A stretch of DNA of 50,564 bases, counting the filler, from Streblomastix strix (Eukaryota): the NCBI GenBank assembly GCA_008636045.1. It is 3 parts of 3 records of this genome, joined end to end, with 100 filler letters (N's around TTAATTAATTAA, not from the genome) between each part and the next. Parts side by side here need not be neighbours in the genome. Positions count along the whole stretch, not along the records: positions 16,904 to 33,692 come from SNRW01000767.1; 2 more parts are not named here. One strand, 5' to 3'. The notes under the pieces are model-generated. The model saw only the letters and a list, made by a program, of their open reading frames with translations. It was not told the DNA's origin and did not search any database. Of the stretch, positions 5,301 to 33,792 are shown in pieces (position 1 is the stretch's first letter; each line of letters starts with the position of its first letter). A program made the translations under genes and the position numbers.

Positions 5301-5700
5301 TTAATGCGCGCGAGTACTTTTCTCCGGATTTGAAACCAACGATTAGGGTGCCGCTAGCAGGTTCTTTCAAAAGTCCTCTTTTAGTAAATTCTTGATTACG
5401 ATTCTATACTTGCGTTTTGTGTCGCCACTTCTCAGGTCTAAGTCGTCCTCGCTAAATCCCGCCTGTAAAAGTTGCGCTTTTGTTTGCTCCTGATCTTGAA
5501 GCTCTGCACGTATTTTCGCCAGTGTCAGTATTTATTCTGCTGCATCATTGCGTGTCATGAGTTCCTTGTACAGTCCTTGCCTGTCCGTCGAACTTGACTG
5601 CATTTCAAAAAAAACCTATCAGGCCCTTAAGTGCCTTTATACCCAAATAAACAGGGAAGCTCGCATTAGCGAAAGGATTGCGACATAATCCGACCGCAAG
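2340..5700 (-). mobile_element. Degenerate DIRS-like retrotransposon (gag, RT, RNase H); no recombinase seen
   Basis: Gag-like ORF from ATG at 5603. RT motifs include PKPNGEWIRIYDC, LDITSAFNHI, MPFGINIAP and YKDD. RNase H motifs include ITTDAS, SNRRE and HIPGINNTEAD. Stops and frameshifts are present, and the ends are approximate. Confidence 0.8.
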
Positions 5701-11960: not shown

Positions 11961-14900
11961 TTCTTCTGGGTTTTGTACCACTCAGGCCGTCATATATGGC
12001 CTCCACTCTTTATTGAAATACAATCAACCCTTAAAATGGGTCAGATCAAGCAAACTAAAAGTATAGGTATACGCGCATCCAAAATGTTCAGAGGAAGTTC
12101 GACAACCGTAAACGGTCTAAACATTAATGATAAGGAGCATGACGGAGTGCCTAACATTTAGGAGCAGGATCCACCGAGAGGCGAGGTAAATGAATAAGAT
12201 TAAGCCGTTCCTCCATGTATGCGCGATTTACTAGGCCGTCCTCCCGACTCCCCTGAAGCTATGAGGTTATAAGCACAGCTTGACACCGCCACTAAAATGT
12301 ATGAGGTGTATTACGCGAAGAAGGTGGAAAACTTAAACCGTACAGGCGAACGAGCAATAAAGCATGAGAAAGAATTTCTACTCCAAAGAGTGGATGAAAC
12401 ATTGGGACTTGAATTTAAGAAGAATGGAGTAATACCAGGTTCAGGGGGAGCGGACCCAGAAAATGAAATTGATACAGCAAGAATGGCTGTTCTGATCCAA
12501 AGGGCATGCATTGCAGGCTCAAAAGCTTTGGTTAAGGAGATTTCTAAGCTACGTAAAGGTTCTATCTCACTTGTCAAATATCGCACGTATAATCGCAGGA
12601 GATTCTTAACAGCGAAGAGAAATAGCCCTTGTTTCGGAGCAATACAAAGCAGTGTTGGTCAAAGTTAATAACATTTTCGCTGTACTTTGGCGCGAATCGA
12701 AGGAAAAAATTAAAGAATCAAATAAGTTTATCAAAATAATTACTCCAACAAGTGAAACATTATAAGCAGTAGAAATTAAACAGTTATAATCGTAATAATC
12801 TTCTGAATAGATAAGCAATCAAGAAGCGAGTTAAGTACCCTAGCCTCAATTCCAGATGCTAAACCATTTTGGCAATCAATCAATATTCATTAATAAGAGA
12901 TAGTAACGCAATCAGTTCTTTTAGTAAGGTTTGTATTCTAGACCTTGGAAGAGGAATAGATTTGGTTTCATTATGAACCTTGAATGACAGTTCTACCATT
13001 AACCATAAGATACATTCTATCAATAGCCAATGAACCTTGCCTATTAGTAGTAATATCCTCAATTTCAGCATTAGATTCCTGGAGGCTATAATATCTAATG
13101 GTCAAGTGTTGTATCATCGAATATTATTCAAAGTTCTTAAATCATTCCATAGCAAACTCCACAAATCCCGATGTAATCACAGCAGCAAAATGCGTAAAGA
13201 GTTCGATCCCAATCAATACAACCAAAATAAGAATGATTGGAGAGCTGCGCGGCTCCGGAATAAGTGAATGATAGAGATTCAGAAAATGATACTAAAGATG
13301 CTGAGTGAGGTACAGATAGAAATACAAGTGGGAGAGGAAGAGAATAGTTACAATTAAGCCGCACTATTTCTGTTGGAGGAGTTCAATCTAAAGAATGTCT
13401 CTGTACCAGATATACTGACAACATAGATCCACGAATGGGATTTAATCAATGGGGGATCTTAAGTTAGGATGGGTGCAACACCAAATTGGACCTTCATAGA
13501 AGCTCTTTAACAGTTAGAAGCAGTGCAGCTTTACAATGAATATCAAAGTTCCAAGAAACAGATGTTAGAATACCGGAATCAACTGATGAAACAAATCTAG
13601 GATGGTATTGTGATCGAAACAGATAATATTCGAATTTTCAACCCAACATCTCTGGTCCCCACACCAGGTGGAAAACAACGGAAGATCTTGGATTGTAGAT
13701 ATATCAATTAATTGACGACATTGCCGAAGTTCAGAATGGATGGAATAGAATTCAAAAAGTAGATTTTGGAACCTTCATATTTCGCCACAACTCTTGATCT
13801 ATTTGATGCATATCACCATATCTGAATGTCAGACCAGCTTCTTCCATATTACGGTTTTGCCTTCATGAGGAAGACTTTCGCTTATAGAGGTCCACCGTTC
13901 GGCTATCGAAAAAAGCCCATACGTTTACAAAAAGATAATATAACTTGCGATCAGAACGATCAGAAAAAGATGGACTTCATTGAAAGTGTCCAATTACATA
14001 GATGACATAATCCTAATTCACAAGAGTAAAACGGAATTGAAGAAAATTACCTAAGAAATAATCGACTTTCTTAAAAAGTTAGAGTGGAAGCTCTAGATTA
14101 AGAAATGTAATATGTATCTATCAATCACAATCAAATACCTAGACTGGCAATGGTCTTCGACAAAGATGGAGGTATTGATGCCACTAGAGAGAAGAAAATT
14201 GATTAAAACTCTAATTAGAAAATGGATTCAAGCTACTAAGAATCGACAAATTATTCAATTGAAAGATCTTGCGAGTCTGATAGGCGAGTTGAATTTTCTA
14301 TGGTTTCAGTTCCAGAATGCTTCATTAAATCTGAACTCTTTGAATCTATTGAAATGCTAAGCAATTAGGAAGGGAGGTTGGAATTGCAAAATGAAATTGA
14401 CAAGAAGGATCCTTAATAATCTCTACTAATGGCTGATTCTTGTTTGCGATAATAGACCTAAGAAATTACTGGAACAACCATTAACAGCAACTCTAACTAC
14501 AGATGCAGCAGAATCAGGATGGGGCTCAACTTTGGTGACTCCGAATATCAAGTTGATGGATGCAGGCAAGTGGAGCAATAATTGGCATTTGAGCAGTAGC
14601 AATTAACGAGAAACAGCTGCAGTCTTGATATCACTCCGCTCGTTTGTACCAATTCTGATACAAGAGAAAATCAAGTGTTTAACATTAGAGACCGATAACT
14701 AGACATTGGAGAACTCATCACTAAAATGGAAATGATCAGCAAATAGAATATATCTAATTAGAGCTAAATTTAAATTGCTAGATCAATTGAAGATTAGTCT
14801 AGTGACTGTTCACATTGCTTATCTATGGAATAGCTTAGCGGATACGTTGAATAGACTGGCTTGGAGAGGAGATTATATGATTAATCCTCTGATTCTCTAA

Positions 14901-16239
14901 GAAAAAATGCAAATACTCCAATTCTACCCGTAACTTGATGCCTTCTCGATTCGAATCACAAAACAATGTAAAAGATATTGCTCGCTATTGAAAGACTGAA
15001 AAGCAGAAGGAAAATGCGGAGCGTTCAGCATTCCATGGAACAATGAGTCACTATTACTTCACCCACTAATCAAATTAATTCCAACAGTCTTCAAGAAACT
15101 AAAGATGGAACCAGCAACAGCTTTATTTATTCTACCGAAGTGGAGTCTGGATAAATTTAGAACTCTTGTTCCTACGATAATTTCCGAAATCGACCTGGGA
15201 AAAGTGGAGATGATACTCGAAAAGGGTAAAACACTACAGGAATTAAATCTGAGACTACCACAAGGAAACCTTTCTGCTCTTCTTCTGACAAGTATTCAGC
15301 TGGAGAATAGTTATATAGAGAATTGGCGTAATTAGCTGGATTTGAATAATAAGCAATACATAAATGATTGATAACTCAAACTGGGAGACCTGGAAGAAAA
15401 GAAGATAAGGACTTACGCTGATGTGTCAATATATTAAATTGAGAAACATAAAATCTGAATAATTAATTGCTGAACGTCCAGACATTCATGTGGTCAATGC
15501 AATGGTTTGGATAAATGGGTTAAGAGGTAAAATCAAGAAGTCTAATATAATCACTCTGAAAACGCATGTAAGCTCAACGCGTTCGTAATTCTCTAAGATG
15601 CCGAAAATTAGTGAATCAGTAATAATTAGAAATTTTTCAAGGTGTTTAAACTTAAAAACGAAATCTAGAGCTCGATATGATGTTATCAGGAACTTAGACA
15701 GGCTACTTAATTATATCGAAGATACAGATTTTAGATCACCTTATGAAGTTCAACTTCACGCAATGTATCTTTTAGTTATTTTTTCTTCCGCAAAAATGAC
15801 AGAACTTTCTCGGATACAACTTTCTGATATAAATTAAAAGCAAGACAAATGCATGATCATTAATGCATGCATCGGGATTGGCTTTAGAATAAGAAATGAA
15901 TAAATAAAATTAAACAAGACTAATACAAAGCTCTGCCATATTAATACATTAAATAAAAGGATTAATATGAGAAGATCAGTTAAAAAAGTTGGAGATTATA
16001 TCTTCTGGAACTATAATAAATCAAAACCTGCTTCATCAACATATTGCAGCTAAAGTCTCACATTACTTCTGAAGAATGCTGGTATATAATAGCCTTATAA
16101 TGGACCATCAATTCGACACGCATCGACGACAAAACTACGTGCATCTGGAGCCTCGATTATGGAAATTAACGCATTGTCCCGACATATTTTAACGTCTAAT
16201 GTTGTGGATGACTTATATTATAGACCAAATACTACGTGA
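11960..16239 (+). mobile_element. Degenerate DIRS retrotransposon: gag, RT/RNase H/methyltransferase-like domain, tyrosine recombinase
   Basis: Gag from ATG at 12036. RT motifs include RKILDCRYIN, LDLFDAYHH, PFG and YIDD. RNase H motifs include LTTDAAESGWG, SSNQRE and TDN. MT-like segment LDAFS...LLHPL...ILPKW. YR motifs include SIRHA and SRHILTSNVVDDLYY. Internal TGAs and frameshifts are present. Confidence 0.88.
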
Positions 16240-16803
16240 GAATCAGGATATACTTTATTCTCAATCGTTGATAATGCAATAAAACCAAAATTCAGTGGAA
16301 CACCATCAAATATATCTTTAAATGCTGTTCTGTTTGCTTATAAAGAATAGGATTATCCAATATTATGGAATGGAGCTATTTCTATTGATTGTTATATTAA
16401 TGCAAATGGTAACGTTATTATAAATACAATGTGTTAGATTAATTTACCTGATGATTTTTGTGTTAAAGTATGTGATTCATATGCTATTCAAAATTAATCA
16501 GTTATTTGACATAATCGAAGATTCTAACTTAAAATGTTAAATTTAAAAATAAACAAATGAATCCGATAAATGAAACAATCATCTATTCTCTAGAATTATT
16601 GAATATTAATTGGAATTCTATCTTTAAGACGATTAGGGATGCAGCATTCAAATATGCTTGCGAATCAAAGATATGCCATTGATAATTAAAATAAATTTAT
16701 TTTTGTCTTCAACCAGCATTAATCGTACTTCCTCCAATCTTACTAATTACGTCAATATTTAACACTTATGGATCAGGATTATTATCAAATGTAATTCGCA
16801 TAA
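16240..16803. mobile_element. Fragment of another copy of the endogenous virus: short-fibre 3' end (+, to 16509), 41-aa ORF (+, 16557-16682), capsid gene 3' end (-, 16709-16803)
   Basis: Colinear, high nucleotide similarity to about 27844-28373. Confidence 0.9.
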
Positions 16804-16903
16804 NNNNNNNNNNNNNNNNNNNNNNNNNNNNNNNNNNNNNNNNNNNNTTAATTAATTAANNNNNNNNNNNNNNNNNNNNNNNNNNNNNNNNNNNNNNNNN
16901 NNN
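16804..16903. other. Artificial contig linker (N run + TTAATTAATTAA + N run)
   Basis: Stop-in-all-frames spacer, identical in design to 33693-33792. Confidence 0.97.
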
Positions 16904-17200
16904 CATCAGGCGTTCCAACGATCTTTGGAGATCTTTCACTAGAAGGATGTAGTGATGTGAGTTATGCGCTAGTTCGCTTCTTGCCTGCATTGACGATTGC
17001 GGGTTCCGATGTTGTATCAGCGAATACAACAGATGAATTTCCATTGGCATATGCCGTCGTATCCAACATATCTAATTTAAATTCAAAGGTTCCTCCGTTC
17101 ATAAATAAATCGTTGCTCACAAATTTGTTCTTGGAATTTCCTGCTGTTTTTTAACCTAAGCAACTTTGGAATAAAAATTTTTGTGCTAGATAATTGCAAC
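16904..17200 (-). CDS. Partial hypothetical host gene (exon running into the contig edge)
   Basis: Open, GC-richer frame CLGQKTAGNSKNKFVSNDLFMNGGTFEFKLDMLDTT...; no family recognised. Confidence 0.4.
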
Positions 17201-20099
17201 TCGCAACTTAAACGCAAGCAAACGACAGAGGCTATGCTACATAGGTCTAAAAATAAAAATAATTAAAATATTTTTTTTGACGATAAATGAAAGAGCACAC
17301 GTTAAATTCAATTTAAGAATCTTTGCGGCAATGAGGCGAAGAGTACGATGACGTGAAAAACGAACCATTATTCAGCAACGACAAGTGAGATCCTAGAATT
17401 TGTTGATTTGCCACGAATTCACAGGGTACGGAGGCATAAGATCCTTAATAAATGTCCTAATCGCACTCGCTGAGCATTACTTGTTCAACGAGAACAAATA
17501 TTAATATGTACAAAACGAGCATCACAGATTTATTACGATCATGCCCATATTTTGAAAAAAAAATTAATTAAATACAACCTACGCATGTTAATCTGATCGA
17601 CAACATGAGCCAGACCAACCGAGTAATATAAATATGATATTTGAAACAAATATTTTGAGTAATAAAAATTAGAACTAAAATATAATAAGAAATACTTCAG
17701 TTCCAAAATCTGTCTAACTGTATGAAAAGCTGGTTCGACGAATTAGTTTAAAACTTACAAGTTTAAATTTAATTGATATATCTATTAATAATATTATCAA
17801 TAAAACGTAAGTAAGAAATTTACTTGATGGAGACATTAAATGATCATATGAAAGCAGCATAAATATAATCTCCAAGGTTCTATCGATAGATATAAGAAGA
17901 AGTTGAAATGGCAAAGGCCATAGCAACTTAGATGACTGACATTCAAAATAAGATTTAACAATAAGAACGAAAAATAATGATGTTTAATCGTCTTGAAGGC
18001 TTCATAATAAAAAGTGAAGAAAATTTTTTAATACTTCATGATTATATAATGTTCTTCTAAATATTTTGTATTATTAATAAATATCTAAAAATTTAATTCT
18101 CCATATAAAGTTGAACTTTATCAAATTAAGAATTATGCTGTATAATATGTTTGAATTAGTATATTTACTTAAATTTAAATGTAAATTATAAATCAAATTA
18201 TAATGAAAATTTAATATTTTACTTAAACAATTAAAAAAATTCTAAAACTGAAAAAAAATTGAATTTTGTTAAAATGAACTTCTCTTAAATTTTAAAAAAT
18301 TAATTTTAAAAATGTTCAACTTTTAATATAAATACCAAAATTATATTTAATTATTTAAAAATTTTCAAACATACTTTTTTTATTACTTTGGTGCTTAATT
18401 TCAAATCAATATTTCAAAATAATATACATGCATTTTTTGTTGACATAAATTTAAAATTTTTTAAAAAAATTATTAAAATTTTACTAATATTATTAAAATT
18501 CATTTTATTATTTAATATATTTAATATTTTACTTCATAATTAAACATGAAATCATCGAAGAGTTCTTAAAATCTAGTTTCAAGCTCATCACGTTTGACAC
18601 ATGAGTTGGAGAGTACAAAACTAAATTCAACGATTTCAAAATCAACTACTTAATTGAACCAACAGCATTAATGAAACAATACATATAGTTCTATTTTTCG
18701 ATAACCATCTACATCTAATTTTTCATATATATGTTTACATATGAATGATTTGGAAGAGTTTCGCTAAACGAAATTATCTGATAATAATAATTAATTGAAA
18801 TATAATTTCTAGAGTAAAATTGCATAAAATGAAAAAGATAAAGATAAAAATTTATGAATAAATCTAAAATAAAATTTAAATCTTTGCATAAATAAATAAA
18901 AATAATTGTTAGGGAAAATTATAATTATTAAATAATTATTTAATGTTTATAAATTGAATGTGAATTTTAATAAGAAAATGAAATTAATCGAAGAAAAATA
19001 ATAAAATTAAATTAACAAAAGCACAATTAGAAATAAGAAAAGCGTAAAAAATTAACCACTGCAATAATAATCAAAATAATAATAATCAGAATTGCCATCA
19101 TTTTAACAATAGGAATAATAGCAATCAATGAAAATTATAAATGAAGATTTAAATTGTATTAAAAAAGATAATAATTCTAATCTTTAATTTGAAATATAAA
19201 ATAAATTAATAATTGAATTAAAAGAATTTGATAAAAAAGTTATGAATTAAATAATTTATAATCAAACTTAATAGATAAAAATAAAGAAAAAAAAAAAAGT
19301 TGAAAATGAGTCCGATGATCAGAATTTATAAAATTAAAAATTTATAAATAAATTTTTATTAGTGATATAATTATAGTAAGAACTACAATATCAATTTGAA
19401 AAAGAATAATATTAATAGTAAACGCAACAGCAATAATAATGATATAATTATTTATATTAATAATGTTAAAATTTAAAATAACAATAATATTAATAATAAT
19501 AATATATAGAATAAATATAAGATAACTAAGATAAATTTCAAATTCCATAATAATTACTGATCAGGTAAATGCAAATATCATCACCATCATAAGATCCAGT
19601 TTAATCTTCTCTAATATTACATTATAATTATTCTCAAATTATTAACAATAATTAATTAATATTTTCTTCCTATTATATTTAATTCAATTCATTGTAATAA
19701 AAGTAACTTCCTGCTTCTGGTATTTTACAATAAACTCCATCTGATATTTTATATACTTTTAATAGTAAAATATTATCATAATTAATTTTGTAATATGAAT
19801 AATTATAAATTAAAAAATGATCAGAATAGTAATAACTTATTTCTCCTAATTATTCACTACATTTTAATTAAAATTTATCATAATCTCCTTTAGTTACATC
19901 TTTTTTATTTCCAGAATAACATTTATAGTAGTAATATTCATAATAATAGTTAATATTATAATTAGAATATCATTAATAATATCATTCGTTATAAGAGTTG
20001 TTATAATAATCAGAAACGCATTTAAAATATTAATATTAATAATAACTGATAATATTTAAATCTTAAATTTAATCGTAATCATAAAATGAAAGTGACGAA

Positions 20100-20550
20100 T
20101 AATGAATAAGCATGATTTGAATTAAAAATATGTATTTTCGTGAAAGAGACATTGACTCTGCTTATTGAACAATTAATATTAATTCAAATGAAAATTTCAC
20201 GCAGTAATTCAATGCTGCAACTAAAGGATCATGATTTTTGCAATAATAATTCTAGAAACTTTTTTCTAACCAATCGTGTAGTCATTATGGATGAAAAAAA
20301 AATTTTTGTTTAGCAATCTAATTTCAAGGGCCAGCAATGATTGCATTAGTTAATGAGTGTTAATTATCGAATTAATTTAATAAAAAAATTAAAAATTATT
20401 GATAATATTAATGATAGCTTTATAACTAAATGCACGAATATGAGATTAGGATAAAAAGATAACTAAATGTCGATTTTAGATATATTTAAGATTAGAATCA
20501 TTAGTGCATATATAAAAATGATTCTATTTGAATGTCGAATTTGCAATGCC
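20100..20550 (+). pseudogene. Family-B DNA polymerase C-terminal relic (Polinton/virus type)
   Basis: MYFRERDIDSAY* is a decayed DTDS catalytic motif, followed by QQFNA, DEKK, GPAMIAL and CTNMRLGQK. Frameshifted. Confidence 0.6.
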
Positions 20551-20599
20551 ACCAATTAGTTATTTTGAATTTATATTTTTTTTAAATATACAATTTTTT

Positions 20600-21080
20600 A
20601 AGATAAGAATTTTATATATTTATATTCTCAATTTCATCGTCGTTAACAATTATCATTTCATTGAATTACAAATATTTTGAATTAAGATCAATGATTTTCT
20701 TATAAATCACAATTAGTTCAAATATTAATGTTGTTTTTCCACTTCCAACTGCTCCTACAATATAATGATTTCTATTAAAATTGAATAATGAATTCATCGT
20801 TAATGGTTTATTTTTATATTCATCCAATAGACATTAGTTCATAAATGTTATAATTTGTAATTGTTGAAGAATAATTTTAATAATAATAAAATAAATATTC
20901 TTAAAGCCATCAATGAAACTATGAATTTCACGTTCAAGGGCATTAATTTTACTGTTTCAATAGTCGTATTATCAATATCAGTTCAAAGAAAAGAGATAAA
21001 TGAACTGTTTAATGTATTGTGGAGTTATTTCGATATATTATTGTTACTTTTGAATTCAGAGATTTTTGTTTTTAAATTTC
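20600..21080 (-). pseudogene. P-loop ATPase relic, probable viral packaging ATPase (A32-like)
   Basis: Walker A HYIVGAVGSGKTTLI at about 20732-20755 and a possible Walker B IIVNDD, next to polB and viral ORFs. Confidence 0.6.
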
Positions 21081-21094
21081 TTTGTAAAAGAAAA

Positions 21095-22311
21095 ATGGCA
21101 AAAGAGAAACCAAGAATGCATTGGTCAAATAAATTTCATTAGAATAAATAGAAGCAATTTTTAACAAAGCTATTGCAAGTAAAGATTTGGAATTAGCACC
21201 ACATTGTAGGCATTTCTTATATTTGAAAATGTTAAATCATCCGAGTAAATATAATGTTTATATATAATTTAATGGAACTAATTTACGAATTAATGACAAG
21301 TATTGGTTTGAAATTTAATACAACAGATCATGAATTTTTCAAAACATTTGATGTACTAATTGAAAATCATGATTTGAACAAATAAGAAAAATAGTTGTAT
21401 GATTTTTTTTCAAAACAATAAACATACATAGAAACGATATAATACGAAATAACTGGATATCATAAAATATTTAAAATGTCTCAGTTTGCTATTGTGGATG
21501 AAATAAGCTAATTCTTCTTCGATAAATTTCACAGAAGGAAATAATAATTAACAAAACTGATATTTTCATTACCATTAATAGATTAATTTTATATTAATTT
21601 TTCTCATCAATTGCTTCTGATATGATATACTTTTTGATTTGTTTCTGCTATGTATTTTGATCTATTGTTTTTTAAATTTTATTGTATTTACTTATAAAAT
21701 ACTACTTTTGTTAATTAATTAGAATATTTTTGAATTTTTCTTCATCAACATATTTCTTGATTTATAATAGCTTCGAATATCAATTTATAAATTATTTATT
21801 TATTCATATTAATTCTTAAAATATTGGATGTATTTATTCATCCTTATCTTTAACCAAAATGTTTTGTAAAGCTTCAATGATGAATTTAATTGTAAGAGTT
21901 TCTTCGAAATGTGATTTCTCAATTTTATTGGTTAATTGCTTAATTTTTTGGTTTCTTTAAATAAAAAATAAAATGTTGCATTATTTATAACTTATTCATT
22001 GAATAAAAAATAAGTTTATATATCTTCTTTTGAATCGTAATCAGTTGATATATTTGAAACAGGATTAGACGTTAGTATATCAGTATTGAGTTCCGGAAGA
22101 GCAATTATGCCTCAAAGGAAATGTAAAAATTAATTTTTCCATAGACCAATGATAAATCTAAAAAGAAAAATATTAATTTTGCTGTGCAAAGGCATATTTC
22201 ACTTTCACTTGCAAATTTATTTGCATTTTCCTAAATAATTTTGAATATTTCATGCAAATTAATATTCCATTGTCAGAGAGAATAAATGATAGATTCATTG
22301 TGAGAAATCAT
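21095..22311. pseudogene. Decayed homologues of viral ORFs A (+21095), B (+21272), C (-, about 21480-21990) and D (-, about 22190-22311)
   Basis: PRMHWS/AIASKDLELA vs PRIHWS/AIANKDLELA; KSHFEETLTIKFIIEALQNIL vs KSHFNDIDTIKGTIEALQNLL; NESIIYSL...FASESEIC vs NETIIYSL...YACESKIC. Confidence 0.8.
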
Positions 22312-23391
22312 TTATTTTATTAATAAATTTTCCATATTTCATTTATGAATCATTTACTTCTTCAGAAAGTTACATAATTAATAAAATTTGTACCATAAAT
22401 TATAAAATTTAAATATATTATTAATGATGTATTAAGATGCCTGCCCTCGAATCAAAAATATAAAAAGTTATTTGGAGGATTAATTGAGATAGTTTTAATT
22501 ATATTGGTGAATTATTAAAAAATATTTAATGGATTTATTATAGAATTGTTTAAGAAAATTGAATATGTTTAATAATGAAAATGAAAGTGAATTGTTGTTG
22601 ATGTATAAATTTATTAATGAAAATGAATTATATTGAGCAATTGTATGAAAAATTGTATGAAAAAATTGTGTGAAATATTTAGTTTGGTTGCTTTGCGGGT
22701 TAATGAATAGGAATTATTGTTATAAATAATTGTATTGATTTTGATTCTCAGGCAGGCTACTTAATATATAACTACTCATTGTTCAAACCTGATGATTTGA
22801 ACGATACGTGTTAACATATATTGACTAAAAGACTTGGTCGAATCAAGTTTATACAAGTGAAAATGAAACAACAGTATCGACTAGTTTTACCATTCATAAA
22901 ATGGATTATTTATTAAAATTAATGGTGTTGAACAGTTATAGAATTGATTATAAACGTTTTTTTTGGAATATACACATATGATATGACCTTAGGTTTGTAT
23001 TTCAGATAGACATGAAAATTTAAGATTTTTATGGGGATTCAGACGTAATATAAAATATTATTATTTTAAATATATATACCAAAAAAAAAGTTAAAAATAC
23101 AAGGAAAAATAAATGTTTTCTAATTGACTTGAGAATAAGTTTTAAGGTCAATGTCGATATACCAATCATGAATTTGATGTTGAAAGTGGGTGCTGCAATC
23201 ATTGTTTAAGGTGAATTACGAGGAGAAGTATGAAGATTGATCATATCGATTAAAATCGCGTATGAATTGAATAAGTGTCATTGAATTTCTTATTTATTAT
23301 TGTAAATTTATTAGTGATGATTTAAATTCATTATCCGCAAATTATAAAAGTTAATTTAATATAACTAATTGAATGGTTTTATTTTAAACAA

Positions 23392-23826
23392 ATGCAAACA
23401 AACAAACAAATTAAACAAACCAGAAAAAGATAACCGAAACAAGTAGTCCTATAATTGATCGAAAAATATCCTGCTCCAATTGATGAAGTACTTCAAACTC
23501 CTATAAATGCTCCTATTATTAAATTATCTTAAATTATTACCACTCCATTGATCAATATATAATAAGAGTAAGAACGAAAAGAATTTAGAGGTAGACCTAA
23601 AAAATATATATCCCAAGGAGAAGCTGAAAGAGTTGCTGCAGAGTAAAATTATTGGGCTCAATAGCTGTATCGCATTCATCGATAGGAATTCTGTTCATCT
23701 GCTAATGGTTTGTAACTAATTTTGATTCGACGTCTTCAGAAAGCTGTCGTAACTAACATATAAGATTTATTCAAGATTTGTGACATTATCCTAAGATCAT
23801 ATCTTAGTCATAGATTACAAAAATGA
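23392..23826 (+). CDS. AT-hook protein (144 aa)
   Basis: Intronless ORF containing RKEFRGRPKKY. Confidence 0.65.
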
Positions 23827-24884
23827 TGTTTATAATCAATTCTGAAACTGTTCATCATCATCAATTTCATCAAATGATGTATTTTAATCAATGAAAACTT
23901 GGTTCAACATATTCATATAGTCATTATAAGATAATCAAACCAAGTTAGATAAATAAAATAGACATATAATTAGAACGTATCGGTCAAATCATTCGATTTG
24001 AGCTATGTATTATGAACAAAATGGGGGTCTGCCTGTAGAAAAATTAAAAAATTTTCATTACTAAATTTAATCAACAATCATAATAAATAATTTCCAATAT
24101 ATATTTTTGAATTTATATATTTCATCAATAAATATAAATTTTTAGTCTCAATAATATTAATTATTACTTTGAATATTGCAAATATGCTTATTTTTTGTTA
24201 TATTTTTATTTAAGAATTTTTTTTTGAAAATAAATCTTATTTTTTCTATATATTTATATTATAGAGCTAAATTTCCCTAATTAATTGATATAGAAGCTCA
24301 AATATGGACCCTGCATGAATGTAAATATTGAATTCTTTCTTTATAACATACATATATATTTATTAATTAATTTAATGTTAAAATTTATTTATAATTTAAT
24401 ATTATTTATTAAAATTATAACTATAAATTGTATAAAATTATAATTAATTAATTTTTTAACTATAAAAAAGGATAATAACTCATTTTTTGGTTCATTGAAT
24501 GACTATTAAATTGAATAAGTTCGAATTTTTCTTATATATATGTATATATAAAAATATGAGTAGTATAGAAAGAAGAAGTTTGGGGTAAGTTCAAAATCGT
24601 ATTTATTATAATTAATTTACCCGCGATTTTGAACTTTTTCCGTCAATTTGCGAAAATCCCTAGAGCGGAAGCACATACATAGGTATGGTTCCATTAATCA
24701 TAGGAAAATGTAAAAATTGATGAAATAGAACAAATGTGAATAAATTGATTATAATAAATATGGTTTCGAACCTACTACAAACATTTTTCTGAGCAATGCT
24801 AATTAATTATTAAAAATAAATTATTGAGGGTTAGCGTATTAGTTAGTGTTAATAATTGTTATAATAAATTATTTTTATATTTGT

Positions 24885-24956
24885 AAGTAGCCCAGTGGAT
24901 GGAAACATGAATTTTCCAAGAGGTGCTGGGTTCGAACCCCACAAAGTGCCGTTTTT
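24885..24956 (+). other. tRNA-like / Pol III A-box and B-box element (degenerate)
   Basis: TAGCCCAGTGG (A box) and GGTTCGAACCC (B box, T-arm stem tggg/ccca), followed by TTTTT. There is no proper acceptor stem. Confidence 0.5.
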
Positions 24957-25449
24957 GCATTCAGTCATTTAGAGCCAAAATGCAAAAATTTGTAAGAAAA
25001 AAAAATTTTTTTTTCGATTTTAGACAAATTTTTTAACCTCCCTTTATTTATTTTTATTTTTAATTTTAATGATTTTTGGGATATTCAGAAGATATTTTTT
25101 TAATATAATTTTTACAAATAAGAATTATCCTTAAAATTATTTTTTTTGCAACATTCGTGCGTATATTGATGAAAATTATATATAAAATAAATGTAAAAAT
25201 AAATTACCTGCACATCATTCAGTGATGTTTAATTAATCTTTATTTTTAAGATATGCATCAATATACGTATTATATCACGTATACTACTTAAAATAGCATA
25301 TAGATTTGATGCTAATTTTTTCTTTGTTTCAATTTTTTTAATTTCATTATTAAGTTATTAGCATTCTTACTGTAATTTTGGTTCTATCTCTTTAAAATAT
25401 TCATACATTTATTTGTCCATTTTGATTAAATTACAAAAAATAATTGTAT

Positions 25450-26067
25450 CAATATAAATCAAAATCATTGTATTCTTATTAATCTTATTCTTGTGGTTGT
25501 TCTTGAATGATTTGTTAAGGCTCCTATTAAATTTATTATGGCTCTTCCTTTTCAACAATCTGTTTTGATTATTTGTTTCGTTTTGCTTTCAATTTATATT
25601 TCTTTATTTGTTTGATAGCGTCTTAATGCTATTGCTTAATAAATGAATTTTCTGTTCGTAATTTGATTAATTTTTCTAAATCAAGTGATGGATTAGTGTA
25701 ATTAATTTATAGAGTTTTAGATGTTTTTACAACTCTTTTTTTAATTTATTTCTTTAATGGTTTTTCTCGAACTTCACTAATGAAATCGTCACTTTCAACC
25801 TAATCTTCCTACTGTTCATAAGATATAAAATCTTCATCATCAATTTATTTTTAAGATGTTTTTTAAACATTTTTCTTTGGAGCAACCCCACATTTCGCTT
25901 ATAACAGTAATTTATTCTACTATGTTTAAGTTAATTTTTTAAGTGTCTTTTTCCTTCTTCGAACACTTTAATATCTTTATTAATTTAGATGACGTATCCG
26001 TTGTCAAAGTATTCAATATTTGTTCCATTCTCTATTAAATTCTTCAATGCGTGTTGTAAGTCCATAT
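25450..26067 (-). pseudogene. Viral hypothetical protein, probably frameshifted
   Basis: Starts MDLQHALKNLIENGTNIEYFDNGYVIQ and ends with an acidic/Gln-rich QEYNDFDLY*. Confidence 0.45.
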
Positions 26068-26142
26068 GAATAATTTTAAATTATGAAAATGATAAAAGGT
26101 ATAGAAAGAAACTAAATTCGCATGTCAAAATCTAAAATATAA

Positions 26143-26835
26143 ATGTCTGAGATTAAACACAAAAAATTAACTGATGAAGATAAAATAAGATTGCAATTGA
26201 TCGATGAAGCATTTAGTCACATAAAATCAATGCCTAGTCAAGGACTTGAGCGAAGTGAAACGGTCGATGAGACCATCAAACCAAAAGAAAATGAAACATA
26301 AACCTAAAATGAAATTATTACATCAACGCCTGAATAATTAATGCTTACATAATAAAAAATAACTAAATATGAGAGTAAATATAATAAAGATAAATATAAA
26401 CAAATTGATAGAACAACAGCATAAGTTGAACCAGATGAAGTAGTTAAAAATACTTATCTTTCCCATCCAAATTTAGCCGTCATGAAATTCATCATTGATT
26501 GTCTATGGAAGACAGTAACAACAAGAAAAAGAGGAGATGAATTTATATTTTCATCAGATAATTTTATTAAACTTTGGTCATTAATCACTTAAGAAAATGA
26601 AGATGACATTGAAATAGTAATAGAAGAACCATTGATGTAATCACATTCATGCAAAGGAAAATCATATAAAAAGAAAGATTTAATTCGCGTGATGGATGTA
26701 TTAATTAAAAATGTTAGCATATCAGTTATTGATAATGTGCTTTTCAACTCTATTGAGAAATTATATAGAATCAACAAGGATTTCGTTCGTTTATCTGATG
26801 CTCCTATATCAGAGCTTACCAAAGATGATTTTTGA
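26143..26835 (+). CDS. Viral hypothetical protein (230 aa; alternative in-frame start at 26122)
   Basis: Open frame MSEIKHKKLTDEDK...ELTKDDF*. Confidence 0.7.
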
Positions 26836-26891
26836 TAATTATTTTAGAAGTCTATTTTTTTACTATTTATTTATTTTTACCAATAACCAAA

Positions 26892-27329
26892 ATGCTTTCA
26901 AAATCCGAAATACTTAGAGGAAAATTGCTTTAGAAACCTTAAAATATTGCAAAGGAAATATGCGTAGAACCAATATATTAATGTGATGATGATTTCTAAT
27001 AACGAACAGTAAATTAATATAACAAACCATACTATAAATTATTAAAGCGTTATGGAAATAATCAATGGATTCCATAAACAATTTACATAATGATCGAGAA
27101 AAGAAATAATGAACATATTGAAGAAACAATTAAACAATATACATAATAGATGAAAGAGCTTCTGAATAGCATTTCTCATTATCCAATACGTAATTTTAAT
27201 GATGCAGAAGCAACTAAATTTTATGAAATGGAACATGCAATTAAATAAATGTAAGAACAAACAAAATACAATTAGTACGGCTAATGCGGAGTTTAAAATG
27301 AAATTAATTGTATATAATACTACGTTTGA
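26892..27329 (+). CDS. Viral hypothetical protein (145 aa)
   Basis: Open frame MLSKSEILRG...CIQYYV*. Confidence 0.65.
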
Positions 27330-27353
27330 TGAACGATTATTTTTGTAATAAAA

Positions 27354-28112
27354 ATGTACCAAAATATAAGTGATTTAGATATGATTGATGAAGAAGAATA
27401 ATCTATGTAATAAGAACAGGCAATTAAATTAATATAATTGTAGGAATAATAATAAAAATAGATAAATGATAGGAATAATTTATTTTAAATCATTGATTAA
27501 GAGACCATTAAGTACTTCAATTATTTGAGTTAATTTTTCAAAAATGCTATTGATTTTGTTAATTTACATTCTGACTAGATAATTAGAGGAGTAAAGACAT
27601 TTTTATAACCAATCATTGCTAGTAAAATTGTTAAATAAGGTGAAACAAGCAACTAAATTCTATTAGCTAATGGAGATACAATCGATAAAGATTAATTAGC
27701 CTATGAGCCAATTGAGAATGAACGTTATTCATCAATTGCATATAGGATGTATGAATAGCGAATATGGGGCACATTAACAATATAAAATAGTAGAGTATAT
27801 ATTTCACTTCAAATAACTCACTCAGATCCGAATACTTAGTGTGAATCAGGATATACTTTATTTTCAATCGTTGAAAATGCTATAAAACCAAAGTTCAGCG
27901 GAACACCGTCAAATATACCATTATATGCTGTTATATTTACGTGTAAAGGATAAGGATATCCAATATTATGCAATTGTGCTATTCCTATTGATTGTTTTAT
28001 TAATCCTAATGGTAATGTTATAATAAATACAATGTTTTAGCTAAGTTAAACTGATGATTTTTGTGTATAAGTATGTGATTCATATGCTATTCATAATTAG
28101 TCGGCTGGTTGA
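27354..28112 (+). CDS. Short fibre-like protein (252 aa)
   Basis: Coiled-coil N-terminus, fibre-type motifs DQIIRGVKTF and QILLANGD shared with the long fibre, and a beta-rich C-terminal domain. Confidence 0.6.
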
Positions 28113-28131
28113 GCAATTTAAAAATAAACAA

Positions 28132-28257
28132 ATGGACGGATTCAATGAAACTATCATCTATTCTCTGGAATAATTGAACATCAATTGGCATGCTATCTTT
28201 AAGACAATCTGGGAAGCAGCGATCAAATATGCGTGTGAATCAAAGATATGCTATTGA
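28132..28257 (+). CDS. Conserved 41-aa viral ORF D
   Basis: MDGFNETIIYSLEQLNINWHAIFKTIWEAAIKYACESKICY; a same-length homologue lies at 16557-16682. Confidence 0.65.
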
Positions 28258-28278
28258 AAAATAAATTTATTTTTGTAA

Positions 28279-30222
28279 TCAACCAGCATTGATCGTACTT
28301 CCGCCAAGCTCACCAATGACATCAATATTTAACACTTATGGATCAGGATTATTATCAAATGTAATTCGCATAAATGCATCACATAGATAATGTAGCATTG
28401 GTGTAATAGATGCCTTAGTTGGATCAGGATAACTTCTCATAGCAATAAATTATTTTAAGTCATTTCAGTTCTAATCTTTATTTATATCTGTACTATCTAA
28501 TACTCCTTTAGTCAAATTACCATTTAAAATAACTTATATATTTGTTCTTGCACCTAGCATTGATGAGTTATATCCTCGCATAAATGAATCATCAGTAGCT
28601 AATTTCCACGCTAACATATATTTGTTAGGATATAGTGTTTTACTAGCTTTTGTCCCTTTAAATAATGTAGTCATTGTGAATACATTTACGTCACCTCGTC
28701 CATAAAAATCACTTTTATCAGAACAATTCAGATTTTCAAATGTAAGTGAATGATATAGATCTGATGGGGCACTAACAACATCTTAATCAACGAAACAATC
28801 AAAAATTAGTCCATTAACGGTTTGTGTCAATGCGTTATATAGCTATGGAACTACATGTCGTTAATCAATAATTAAATCAAAATCATAAAATAATATAGGA
28901 TAAAACCATGTTGGATACTATGGCATGGCAAACGTCATAAATAGTGATTTCATATTAGAGAATGACATAATATTTTACATTGCTCCACTTTATTCAGTAA
29001 TACCACTAAATGGGAAATTTGATGATTAAGATTTAAATACTTAGGTAGGAAAATTGACTATTATTTATTCTCTAATCATGCTAACTATTGCTTCTTCATT
29101 TTCAACATTAAAACATATATTCTATATCTCTAATTTCTCAAATCGTGCATTATTTATTTAACTGATATTGTTCTATGGTCCTCTATCTCCATTTGCAGCA
29201 TTTTACATATTGACTATTCGTACATTAAATTTCTTATAACTAAATACTTCTGCTTCATTTGGTTCAGCTAATATATATACTATATCTGGTTTCTCAGGTG
29301 GAATCATGTGATAAGCCAAATGTAAATTTTGAACAGCATCAGTTTTGTTAAGCCAAACTACCTTCAAATCCTATAGATAATCTTATATCCAAAGTTATAG
29401 AAATAGTGAAGCATAATTCCGTGAAAGAACAGGAAATGAATTAAAGATTGGATTTAATTAATTAAGATCAAGTACTCCACTAAATGTAATATCAAATGGA
29501 ATTTTAAAATACCAAGGAGTTGTACCTGATTATTCATCAATATCAGATAGAGGAATGTCAATAAATATTCCACAATGACGTTTACCATTAATGATGCTTT
29601 CTAGTGGAGAAACACTAACGCTATTACTAGTGCACAAATCACTCAATGAATTAGAACTAATTGCAGCTTATTCTCTGGCATATATAAAAGTATTCCATAA
29701 TGCAGTAGCATCACGCATCAATTGAAATTGGTGAAATGGTATACACGCAGTGGAGAATCCAAGCCAAAAACGTAATCGCTCAGATTTCTCATCTCCTTCA
29801 ACTGTTTTTCCATAAAACTTTTAATTTGCTTATGCTATATTTTTTGCAACAGGATCTTAGGAATTTATTTTACCATTGAAGTTAAATCTTTTATTTATAT
29901 CATCTCCTTCTTCATTTGTTTTATTTAATTATATCGCTAATGTATCGGCTGGTATGGTAATTGTCCAATTTACTTAGCATGTATACACCATTGAACATGT
30001 GGCTAATCCCCTTGCCCCTAGTGGTGCTCTAGTATATTTTACTCCACTAGATGTTAATTCATTTTCTGGTTAATCGGTGAATTATTGCATGGAAATTGAA
30101 AATGATCCTTGATGAATCTTTAATGTTTTTAATACTTCACCTTATTACATATAACCAGCAACGTAATCAGAGTGTTACATTTTTTGCAAACGGGCTAGAT
30201 AATCACTAGATTTGAATGACAT
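28279..30222 (-). CDS. Putative major capsid protein (647 aa; double jelly-roll inferred)
   Basis: Intronless ORF MSFKSSDYLARLQ...RLRFWLGFSTAC...FSGVLDLNQLNPIF...YMLAWKLATDDSFMRG...TPMLHYLCD...INAG*. Size, beta-rich pattern and neighbourhood fit an MCP. The ORF is well supported but the function is inferred. Confidence 0.65.
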
Positions 30223-30288
30223 TTCAATAAAACAAAAATAACTGTATGCTGATGACAATAATGATAATAAATTTTATATTAAATCAAA

Positions 30289-30498
30289 ATGGGATTCTTC
30301 TCTGGAATAGCGAATTTTGGATCGAAAATTTTAGGCGGTGTTAGGAAAGCAGCGTGATGGGTAGCACCAGCATTACATAAAGTTTTATCAACGATATCTG
30401 GCCCAGTTGGAATGATTCATCCTGCTATTGGTGGCGCATTAGGGGCAGGAGCTAATCTTGCTGGTGCTGTTGATCGATTAGTCAATAAGCGAGGATGA
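30289..30498 (+). pseudogene. Small Gly-rich amphipathic protein, adenovirus protein-VI-like (one internal TGA at 30355)
   Basis: MGFFSGIANFGSKILGGVRKAA*WVAPALHKVLSTISGPVGMIHPAIGGALGAGANLAGAVDRLVNKRG*. Confidence 0.6.
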
Positions 30499-30524
30499 AA
30501 CTCGATCAATTTATTTTTGTAAAA

Positions 30525-32789
30525 ATGAACATCCCATTATCGTAACAAAAAACTCGAACAGTTAGATAGTTAATCACTAACGATATTGCTTAATATATTC
30601 AATATTAGAAACGAGGTGGATCAAGTGGCGGAATGATGTCCGATGAGGAGTATCAATTATTCATAGATAATAACAATGCATTAGTCTATGCCGCTAACAA
30701 ATAAATACTCGATGGAATGGCATCAGATTACGCATTAAAAATAGATCCTCCGGGGCTATTAACGATAAAGAATTTGAAGGTGATTAATTTTGATTTTATC
30801 GCTTTGATTAATTAGTTGATTAATTAAGTGAATTTACTATAATAATCAATTGGAACAACAAAATAAGATATCTCTGATATAAAAAATGATATTGATACTA
30901 TTAATCAAAAAATATCAAGATAAACACATTTCAGAGGATATTATTTATTGAATACAGATATTAAAAAATTTTTTAATTCCTCTAATGGAGATTTTGCTTT
31001 TAGTGCTGAAAGTGGAACAGTTTGGATGTTTGATTAAAATTGGTATAATAGTGAAGATATAGTTCCAGATCAAGTTACACCAGCTAGTGATGCAACACCA
31101 TTATCTGATGGTACAGCATCAGCAGGAATTAGCACAGACTAATCACGTGGGGATCATGTGCATCCCAGAAATGTAACATCAACTATTCCAATTAGTGATT
31201 CTGCTAGTGGATCAGTTGGTACAAGCAATTATTATGCTATAAACGATCATTCTCATCCCCTCAATATAACTTCTACTGTACCACCACAAGATAGTGCAAG
31301 TGGATCAGTTGGTACAACTAATTTTTATGCTTGAAACGATCATTCATATCCCATTAATGTAGAAACTAACGCTTCAAATATTCCAATCGTTGATGGTGTA
31401 GGAGCTAATGGAACATCTTCTTTTTACGCTAGACAAGATCACGTTCATCTATAACAATTAACATATGACGGGAACGTAACTGCAACAAAATTTATTAAAA
31501 CTGGAGGATTAGCAACTGAAGTGTTATGCACTAATGGAGATACTACAACGATATCTAATAAGATATCTCGTGAATATAATGCAAGTGCTGGCGTATGGAT
31601 TAGATTATGTAACTTTCCTGCTGGTGCCAGTGTTGGTAGTCCATTCATTGAATTTAAAGTATATTCAACTTATAATGCAGTTCAAACCATTAAATTACTG
31701 CCATATTATACCGAAAATGGAATCACTAATGTATATGGAATATTTAATGCTCCAGTTAAAGTTAGTTCATATTATGATATTGAATAAAGTGTTAATTAAC
31801 TATTTCATAATCATTCTGGATCAGGCACATCAGCTATTTATTCGGCATATGTTCGATTAGAATCAGCTGGTACCGTTACGATAGTTGTATCTGATTAAAG
31901 CACTTATTATACCAATAGAATCACAGAGATATTAACCTAAGATGTAGTCTAAGTAGTAGCAAATGGTACATAAATACCAATTACTTATGATTTAGCTAAT
32001 GGAGGAATAATAAATAATATGCTATAAGTTAATCCAACAGGTAGAACATATACTACGTTTAATAATGGTATTAGAATTGGAAACTATAACACAGAATACT
32101 CATCATTATATTTAGGCTGTTCAAATTCAGCTATAAATACTATACGAACTGGTTAATGAGAAATTAGTAAAACAAGTGATAGGGCATTGACAATTAACCC
32201 ATCTTCTCAATGATAAGCTGATCATAGTGTTGGTTTAAGTATTATTGGTGACAGTTCAATAATAAAATTTAATGGTAATGAATTAGTGAATGTTAGAACT
32301 GATTAAACAATTACAGGTATAAAAACATTCGGAAAATTATTATAAGATAACCCATCAGCTGATGGAACATATAACGAAGGGATACGAATTAGTAGATCAA
32401 CAAAAAATTAATGGAGTAATATATAATTTAGTTGTGATCCAAATACAAATTCTGGGGGTATTGATAACTAATGGATTATAGGAACATCTGGAAATAATGA
32501 TGAAAATCCACTTGGTTTTATCATAGCAAAGGCAGGATAAGAAGGTTAGACTAGTAGAGGTTTATAAATATCCGCTGATGGAAACACATTAACGTTCAAT
32601 GGATCTGTTGTTGCTGGTATTGGGGCAACAAATGGTGCAACTAATGGTTCAGTTAATTATTCTGCAGGCAATCCAATATTATGTGGTCTAAATAGCGTTG
32701 ACACTAATGGAGGATTTTATAGCGGTGGACCTAAAGTGTATTGGAGAGCTAAACCAGTTACATTAGGGGCTGTTCCTGTTCCTCCATGA
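30525..32789 (+). pseudogene. Long tail-fibre-like protein (754 codons; TGAs at 31332, 32157, 32211)
   Basis: One continuous frame with four G-x(4-5)-(Y)(A/S)RxDHxHP-type repeats, DQTITGIKTF, and repeated GIRI...W modules. Confidence 0.7.
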
Positions 32790-32819
32790 TCAATGATAAT
32801 AATTTATTTTTGAAATTAA

Positions 32820-33173
32820 ATGGAAAAACAATAGATATAGCCAATCAAATAATTATTCAATGAATTAGTCAAATCTCACTTTAATGATATCGATACAATT
32901 AAAGGAACAATTGAAGCATTATAAAATTTGTTAAAGAATGATGTAAAAGAATCAATCCATCCATTACTCTAAGAATTAATGAGAATTAATAAAATGTTCA
33001 CTAATCAATAACAATAATTATAAAATATGAAGAAGATGGTAGATGAAGAAGATAATAAAAATAAATTATTTAATGAATAGGATAAATACTTCAAAAAATA
33101 AATATTTATTAATCAAAAAATCATTAGATCTAAACAATTAATCATAACAAATAAAGAAATACATTATCTCTGA
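32820..33173 (+). CDS. Viral ORF C, coiled-coil (probably frameshifted, continuing to about 33280)
   Basis: MEKQQIQPIKQLFNELVKSHF...; KKYIISEA in another frame matches the sister copy. Confidence 0.6.
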
Positions 33174-33238
33174 AGCTAGTGAAGAAGAAAAATAGATTCA
33201 CCATTAATTTGTGAATGATGAATAATACAGTAACTTTG

Positions 33239-33493
33239 TCAATTATTATCAGCTTAATTTAAAATAATAAGATTGTTGATATATTATATGTATTTGATTA
33301 TCTCTTCAATTTTATCTTACATTGGTTCGAGAAAACAAAAATGCTAATTTAATTGTTCATATATTTATTTTTCCTCATCATTCATTTCATTTAAATTTAT
33401 CTCAATTAATGCTTCAAATATTTTGAAATTCTCATACTCAGATGCATTATACTTTTCACCAATGCTTCTAGCTAATTAGTAAAGCTATTCCAT
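33239..33493 (-). CDS. Viral ORF B (84 aa)
   Basis: MEQLYQLARSIGEKYNASEYENFKIFEALIE; homologue at 21272. Confidence 0.65.
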
Positions 33494-33503
33494 TTCATTT
33501 AAT

Positions 33504-33668
33504 TCAAACAATTTATTTACTTGGTTAATTTAACATTTTAAGATAATGGATATATCTCCAATGTGTGGCCAATTCTAAATCTTTATTTGCTATTGCTTCA
33601 TTCAGAAATGTTTCGATTTATTCTACAGATAGCTACGACCAGTGAATTCTAGGCTAATTCTTATCCAT
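33504..33668 (-). CDS. Viral ORF A (54 aa)
   Basis: MDKNQPRIHWSQLSVEQIETFLNEAIANKDLELATHW; homologue at 21095. Confidence 0.65.
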
Positions 33669-33692
33669 TTTTCTTTTGTAAAAGAATTGTAT

Positions 33693-33792
33693 NNNNNNNN
33701 NNNNNNNNNNNNNNNNNNNNNNNNNNNNNNNNNNNNTTAATTAATTAANNNNNNNNNNNNNNNNNNNNNNNNNNNNNNNNNNNNNNNNNNNN
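33693..33792. other. Artificial contig linker
   Basis: N run + TTAATTAATTAA + N run. Confidence 0.97.

Follow-up and report, generated by a model that had tools for sequence, protein, structure and literature searches.

A small amphipathic protein encoded beside the capsid gene of Polinton-like elements in Streblomastix strix: a candidate membrane-penetration peptide sharing a helix motif with virophage capsid tails and adenovirus protein VI

Membrane-active proteins in adenoviruses, virophages and Polinton-type viruses

The lytic helix of adenovirus protein VI (pVI) ruptures endosomes and also binds hexon (PMC8310329), and the protease cut in pVI lies directly upstream of this helix at 34-54 (10.1101/857581). 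In mavirus, GG is where the viral protease cleaves the tail of the capsid protein. The first fragment so released was suggested by Born et al. to contain an amphipathic helix that ruptures the endosome, and a role as assembly scaffold has been proposed for the tail as well (PMC6048507). Membrane-active small virion proteins have already been postulated for Polinton-type viruses (PMC8502044, 10.1101/341131, 10.1101/2024.03.25.586562). The 'Macc' class of adintoviruses and adomaviruses (Cupiennin, PLA2X, GasderminX and LO6), which can be likened to the peptide of this study by description only, also comprises small genes of predicted membrane activity that Polinton-type viruses carry in their virion module; in contrast, these are animal viruses that encode adenain. 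For Polinton-like viruses (PLVs) and virophages, published proposals for membrane crossing are guesses, for example lipases, SLATT pores (PMC4642659, PMC12220804) and the mavirus tail helix, and the first-described PLVs are without a protease (PMC4642659).

Endogenous PLVs that use genetic code 6 were reported in Streblomastix strix by Bellas et al., with 820 listed capsid hits in this species; the capsid hits and code 6 are features that link these elements to the Metamonada group (PMC10120064). In the available text the group is described by capsids only, without an entry protein (PMC10120064), and it is still unplaced (10.64898/2026.06.19.733378). Within the accessible full-text literature, a range that leaves out most subscription journals, we found no description of the peptide gene reported below or of a sequence motif that pVI and the tails of virophages have in common; the supplementary tail alignment of Born et al., which lies outside this coverage, may show the motif. 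The peptide gene is likewise absent from the available text of 10.1101/2023.08.22.554363, 10.1101/2025.10.09.676808, 10.64898/2026.06.19.733378 and 10.64898/2026.10.13.758929.

The capsid, peptide and fibre-like genes of the S. strix element

The window analyzed here is a stretch of 50,564 nucleotides (filler included) from S. strix, a termite-gut oxymonad in which homologues of the peptide and of its neighbour are annotated. It consists of three contigs joined by N spacers, and all positions refer to this joined sequence. The spacers at 16804-16903 and 33693-33792 (TTAATTAATTAA core) mark the joining and flank on both sides the contig with the degraded element (16904..33692; 16,789 bp, no strand assigned). 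Translation with table 6 opens many long reading frames in the window versus almost none under the standard code. With a major capsid gene of the double jelly-roll (DJR) type, code 6 and an oxymonad genome, the element agrees with the Metamonada group of PLVs.

The DJR major capsid protein gene occupies 28279..30222 on the minus strand (647 codons, ATG at 30222) and contains an in-frame TGA at 28465-28467. Its assignment as a DJR capsid is indicated by Atlas features (0.95-0.96 to the Capsid_N and Sputnik-MCP clusters) and weakly by fold, six of the top seven rows of the VIA comparison being DJR capsid-fold proteins (Z 3.1-4.8). Sequence likeness to virophage capsids was not found, and the AlphaFold model of the capsid, which was poor (pLDDT 49), gave no Foldseek match at E<=0.001. 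As the original prediction noted, the peptide gene (30289..30498, plus strand) is divergent from this capsid gene; the two stand head to head, 66 bp apart, and from the AT-rich spacer between their starts (30223..30288, unstranded) we infer a shared promoter that serves both. In contrast to the virophage arrangement, the peptide is a separate, divergent gene and the capsid of the window lacks GG-type sites and the basic amphipathic tail. On the other side of the peptide gene, a fibre-like gene extends over 30495..32789 on the plus strand; it encodes a coiled coil followed by DHxHP repeats, was named by eye without a family match, and its start is uncertain.

The peptide gene holds a fixed place between the capsid and fibre-like genes. 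Adjacent locus tags were observed for 13 peptide-capsid pairs against 0.6 expected, with a maximum of four in 2000 draws (151 and 119 tags). Moreover, 38 of the 83 proteins matched by the family profile are fused gene models, with the antisense capsid frame involved in 17 and the fibre gene in 24. Two other gene structures were considered and set aside. The capsid ORF could be extended upstream by 52 codons, over the peptide gene, but several full-length homologues start at MSF, and the longer form was therefore dismissed. A splice fusion of the peptide with the fibre-like protein is unlikely, given that the stand-alone C-terminus of the peptide is conserved and that the predicted junctions at which gene models join the two vary from model to model. 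Many copies carry a conserved K-R-G-x-S-S-G-G before the Met-Met of the fibre-like gene, located at 30560-30640 in the window.

At this locus the peptide gene is a nonsense pseudogene of 69 codons plus stop that starts MGFFSGIANFGSKILGGV and has a premature TGA at codon 23 (30355..30357, plus strand), where other copies carry TAA, read as Gln in code 6. A protein search matched 72 proteins at E<=1, of which 70 are named Streblomastix strix. Among 60 aligned full-length homologues codon 23 specifies Gln in 54, Lys in four and Tyr in two, a count biased by the exclusion of stops from the protein database. At the nucleotide level, position 30356 is A (giving TAA) in every covering contig from four runs of three studies, two of the runs being from one sample (22, 6, 6 and 5 contigs). 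Third codon positions make up 25 of the 33 listed variable places of the ORF (p 8e-7; seven further rows fall outside the list). Judged by the 72 matches and the third-position bias, the ORF is real and conserved and not a chance frame, and the alignment of other copies that the original prediction had called for shows that the TGA at 30355 is normally a sense codon.

The peptide family is under purifying selection, and the window copy is one of its decayed members, as follows from its TGA against TAA elsewhere, the third-position variation and the TGAs in the neighbouring genes, which are also broken (three in-frame TGAs in the fibre-like gene and one in the capsid gene). This copy would yield only a 22-residue fragment. 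Functional readthrough of the TGA was rejected because the other copies have TAA and the neighbouring genes show the same kind of break.

Several further remains were observed in the window. A second, partial copy of the 3' end of the capsid gene and the gene next to it (16225-16803, cut by the contig end) is 82-92% identical to 27828-28373. DIRS-like retrotransposon remains occur at 12036-16239 on the plus strand, where reading frames like those of reverse transcriptase and RNase H accompany a tyrosine recombinase (Phage_integrase, E 4e-9), and, judged by eye only, at about 2900-5600 on the minus strand. A degraded P-loop ATPase fragment with a Walker A motif and weak AAA matches, possibly a packaging ATPase, lies at 20501-20842 (minus strand). 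There are two pairs of inverted repeats: 21140-21363 / 33402-33625 (73%), which resembles a duplicated small gene more than terminal repeats, and 22897-22993 / 23790-23886 (77%).

The peptide family and its helix motif

Altogether we collected 154 proteins, 114 of which have 66-71 aa with a start Met. The latter group as four subfamilies (50, 33, 15 and 12 proteins) plus four singletons, and although identity between medoids is 51-71%, length, charge and helix are retained in all four subfamilies. Intact members are 67-69 aa long, cationic and amphipathic, and well over 100 copies are present in the single genome of S. strix. A profile search of 1.84 billion proteins gave 83 matches at E<=0.001, with pVI and virophage capsids both absent from them. 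Three distant relatives among these matches have E-values of 1e-4 to 5e-4 (P0261, P0262 and P0265). In P0265, a 66-aa relative, GG stands immediately ahead of the F-W helix start, as in a short propeptide form, and its format stands between the virophage and free-standing formats. In the viral and metagenome contigs searched, no relative of the peptide gene was found; the one match was a chance hit, antisense to a long phage tail gene.

An amphipathic helix is predicted at the N-terminus, over residues 2-26 (30292..30366, plus strand), and carries the motif F-[FW]-S-G-[IL]-x-N-F-G, which is common to virophage capsid tails and mature pVI. The best 18-mer of an intact copy (residues 3-20) has a hydrophobic moment of 0.58, compared with 0.37 +/- 0.07 in 2000 shuffles (p 0.0035), and the best 18-mer of the window copy also reaches 0.58. 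Segments 2-17, 18-26, 28-38 and 46-67 are oriented within about 60 degrees of one another. The predicted structure of the peptide comprises two long helices, with the weak support of pLDDT 62 and pTM 0.25. The amphipathic N-terminus of the original prediction was thus recovered as a cationic helix, with a moment that matches the 0.52-0.60 of pVI.

Among the comparisons made, the nearest match is the capsid tail of Sputnik-type virophages. It was the motif that first led to this virophage clade, so that a selection bias is present. Virophage capsids fetched by their jelly-roll core gave 15 loci, 14 of them complete and nine distinct and new. In each of the 14 complete capsids, a GG or GxG site precedes [DN]F[WFL]S-x-L-x-x-FG, and the alignment of the mature Sputnik chain 3J26 (508 aa) extends exactly as far as this site. 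Scored against a matrix of the nine core-found tails, the four family medoids (36.9-44.2) each exceed 200,000 of 200,000 shuffles that preserve the hydrophobic pattern, and tape-measure-like windows reach at most 17.4. Profile-profile comparison with the tails gave 52-54 over 51-53 columns for the broader profile, at 97% probability in the tool's own run; in some tails the likeness extends over 35-50 residues. Bit scores to the tails are at most 20 with the S. strix-only profile and at most 30 with the broader one. The 11-residue S. strix pattern occurs at four loci in all viral contigs, namely three virophage tails and one non-coding frame, while a tail-derived pattern, in a partly circular search, occurs at 15 loci, all of them virophage capsids.

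Masking of the motif removed the signal of the first 13 tails when they were scored with the S. strix-only profile (11.7, where shuffles gave 9.6 +/- 2.9 with a maximum of 21.2). Against the broader profile, the pooled tails scored 19.8 (shuffle maximum 13.2). Among seven later tails, L084 scored 21.3 over 38 columns (maximum 13.6 in 12 shuffles); with the broader profile a clear remainder was also obtained for L083 and L077, and most of the other four tails had no clear excess over their shuffles. These values are to be read beside masked tape-measure controls of 16-17 and the fact that the shuffles lack helical periodicity. On these comparisons, common ancestry with the virophage tails is plausible.

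Like the S. strix element, virophages are DJR-capsid viruses of protists, and their tails (mavirus fragment MCP-C1; Sputnik-type, PF21915/PF22031) have an F-[WFL]-S-G-L-K-x-F-G helix and a layout of helix, Pro kink and helix, with L084 alignable over 51 columns. In contrast to the separate gene described here, these tails are fused to the capsid behind GG/GxG, have an Arg-rich end and are encoded near a protease-like gene; the tail of mavirus itself did not align to the family. In the Sputnik-type capsid C-termini of L054-L067 and L074-L088, the helix right after GG/GxG is almost the same as the beginning of mature pVI; it is often followed by a P-H-P kink, by linkers that are rich in Gly and hold additional GG sites, and by an Arg-rich end. 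The C-terminus of a protein on a 3.1-kb viral contig (L053:2821-3036) likewise combines an aromatic helix of this kind with a P-H-P kink and a basic tail.

The pVI comparison of the original prediction holds for a real motif but missed the closer match in virophage capsid tails. In viral contigs the eight-residue motif occurs at 51 loci: 36 in adenovirus pVI, four in virophage capsid tails, eight in proteins judged tape-measure-like by eye and three others. Since eight of the 51 loci are of this tape-measure-like kind and two distant homologues of the family match tape-measure PHROGs, amphipathic convergence is real. The motif WSG[IL]KNFG is exact in sister subfamilies, the one starting MGFWSGLKNFGSK being nearest to the mature pVI motif, and the window copy keeps seven of 11 residues. 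Pattern-preserving shuffles reached the pVI motif scores of the four medoids in 97, 174, 0 and 5 of 200,000 cases. However, the profile-profile score of the family with pVI was 33 over 15 columns, where motif-matched tape-measure controls gave 21-29, and eight pVI sequences out of 32, compared one by one, scored 30-34 versus 23-33 for five motif-matched tape-measure segments. With the motif masked the comparison with pVI fell to 11.0 (shuffle maximum 13.1), the likeness ending by about 15 residues.

Pre-pVI accounts for three of 15 rows in a PDB profile search at E<=10, none significant (best E 1.3), and pVI was not retrieved from PDB at this threshold by the virophage-tail profile or by a single subfamily member. 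None of 61 members matched the MCPVI Pfam profile at E<=1, nor did further subfamily members at E<=2, while a real pVI matches it at E 5e-101. Taken together, the short motif shared with mature pVI is real, but it covers only 12-15 residues and does no better than the tape-measure controls. The peptide lies outside the pVI family (PF02993), with which it shares the motif at the mature N-terminus, an equal hydrophobic moment and a gene adjoining the capsid gene. In contrast to the peptide, pVI is 233-279 aa long, with a propeptide removed at GG upstream of the helix, PPxY and a C-terminal cofactor peptide; in the peptide the helix begins at residue 2-3, PPxY was found in none of 113 members, and the propeptide and C-terminal region are absent. 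The peptide may nevertheless act in a pVI-like manner.

Proposed function and competing explanations

The intact product is probably a virion-packaged membrane-penetration peptide, predicted to act without protease cleavage. In the proposed mechanism, the peptide would be held inside the capsid and released after uptake; the aromatic helix at its N-terminus (residues 2-26) would then insert into the vesicle membrane and rupture it, together with two more helices that are in phase with it, the breaks between them being at Pro27 and at His-Pro 44-45. Because translation starts one residue ahead of the helix, no cut would be needed, which would fit both a capsid without a tail or GG sites and PLVs without a protease.

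A role inside the particle as cement, scaffold or core, in which the amphipathic helix binds a capsomer cavity or DNA and not lipid, would agree with the mean net charge of the family (+5.8), the tie of its gene to the capsid gene, the binding of hexon by the same helix of pVI (PMC8310329) and the scaffold proposal for the mavirus tail (PMC6048507). We nevertheless hold it to be unlikely, since the basic residues are dispersed over the polar face of the helices without the Arg-rich cluster found at virophage tail ends; capsid binding and membrane lysis are, moreover, compatible in one protein, as in pVI.

In a different reading, the membrane-active product would not be part of the virion but would serve in exit or in killing of the host, like a viroporin or holin, and its likeness to pVI would have arisen by convergence only. 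Published proposals for the egress of these viruses include pore-forming proteins (10.64898/2026.10.13.758929), and the peptide has cecropin-like features (Atlas 0.78, a lead only) and weak single Pfam matches to frog antimicrobial peptides (E 0.17-0.34, each for one of 61 members). However, the other homes of the motif are virion parts, in which it takes the same position after the cut, the highest mean hydrophobicity of an 18-mer is only 0.70 at a net charge of +6, and the gene belongs to a structural block, all of which makes this reading distinctly unlikely.

The original prediction in its full form, a pVI orthologue that is myristoylated and matured by adenain at ILGG|V, is very improbable, even though the motif beats pattern-preserving shuffles against pVI, pre-pVI appears among the PDB rows and Met-Gly is found in 103 of 113 members. 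ILGG|V (residues 14-18; 30328..30342, plus strand) lies within one in-phase helix, which a cut would split in two, and is thus an unlikely maturation site. It is not conserved across subfamilies, being retained in 55 of 110 copies (32/50, 14/33, 9/15 and 0/12), and the distant relatives P0261, P0262 and P0265 have IWNG, IVSG and IVGG at this site. Nothing in the window, which holds a 16.8-kb fragment of the element, matched a profile built from nine protease-like proteins of virophages (best 1.3 bits). The absence of masked likeness and of the propeptide, PPxY and C-terminal region likewise tells against orthology. The PROSITE-type rule for myristoylation, itself imperfect, asks for Met-Gly, a third residue of a permissive kind and a small one at position 6. 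Although Met-Gly is common, Phe follows it in 106 of 113 members and breaks this rule, which only four of 113 satisfy, so that myristoylation is poorly supported.

Adoption by the host as an antimicrobial peptide acting on the bacterial symbionts of the protist, to which the antimicrobial-peptide-like composition and the high copy number in one genome might point, is extremely improbable, as no signal peptide was seen and the copies travel and decay with the capsid and fibre genes.

The virion-packaged peptide remains our preferred reading. A function in membrane penetration as an internal virion protein is likely for a product that is conserved, capsid-linked and amphipathic; what falls away from the original prediction is the detail of the adenain cut and the myristoyl group. 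The comparisons point to one N-terminal helix motif in three formats: adenoviruses free the helix by cutting pre-pVI, Sputnik-type virophages would likely do so by a capsid-tail cut at GG, and in S. strix the helix would be free-standing from translation onwards. More tentatively, and with considerable doubt, the lytic helix of pVI, the first peptide of the virophage tail and the free-standing gene might represent one ancient entry-peptide module of DJR viruses. If so, this module has existed as part of a capsid tail, as a protein guarded by a propeptide and as a minigene independent of protease, and its moves among these forms would explain both the entry of protease-less PLVs and the origin of pVI. 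With the helix motif, which is shared and position-specific, a definite candidate peptide can be named in two groups of protist viruses; the motif may also offer a reason for protease-free viruses as well as a lead to the origin of pVI.
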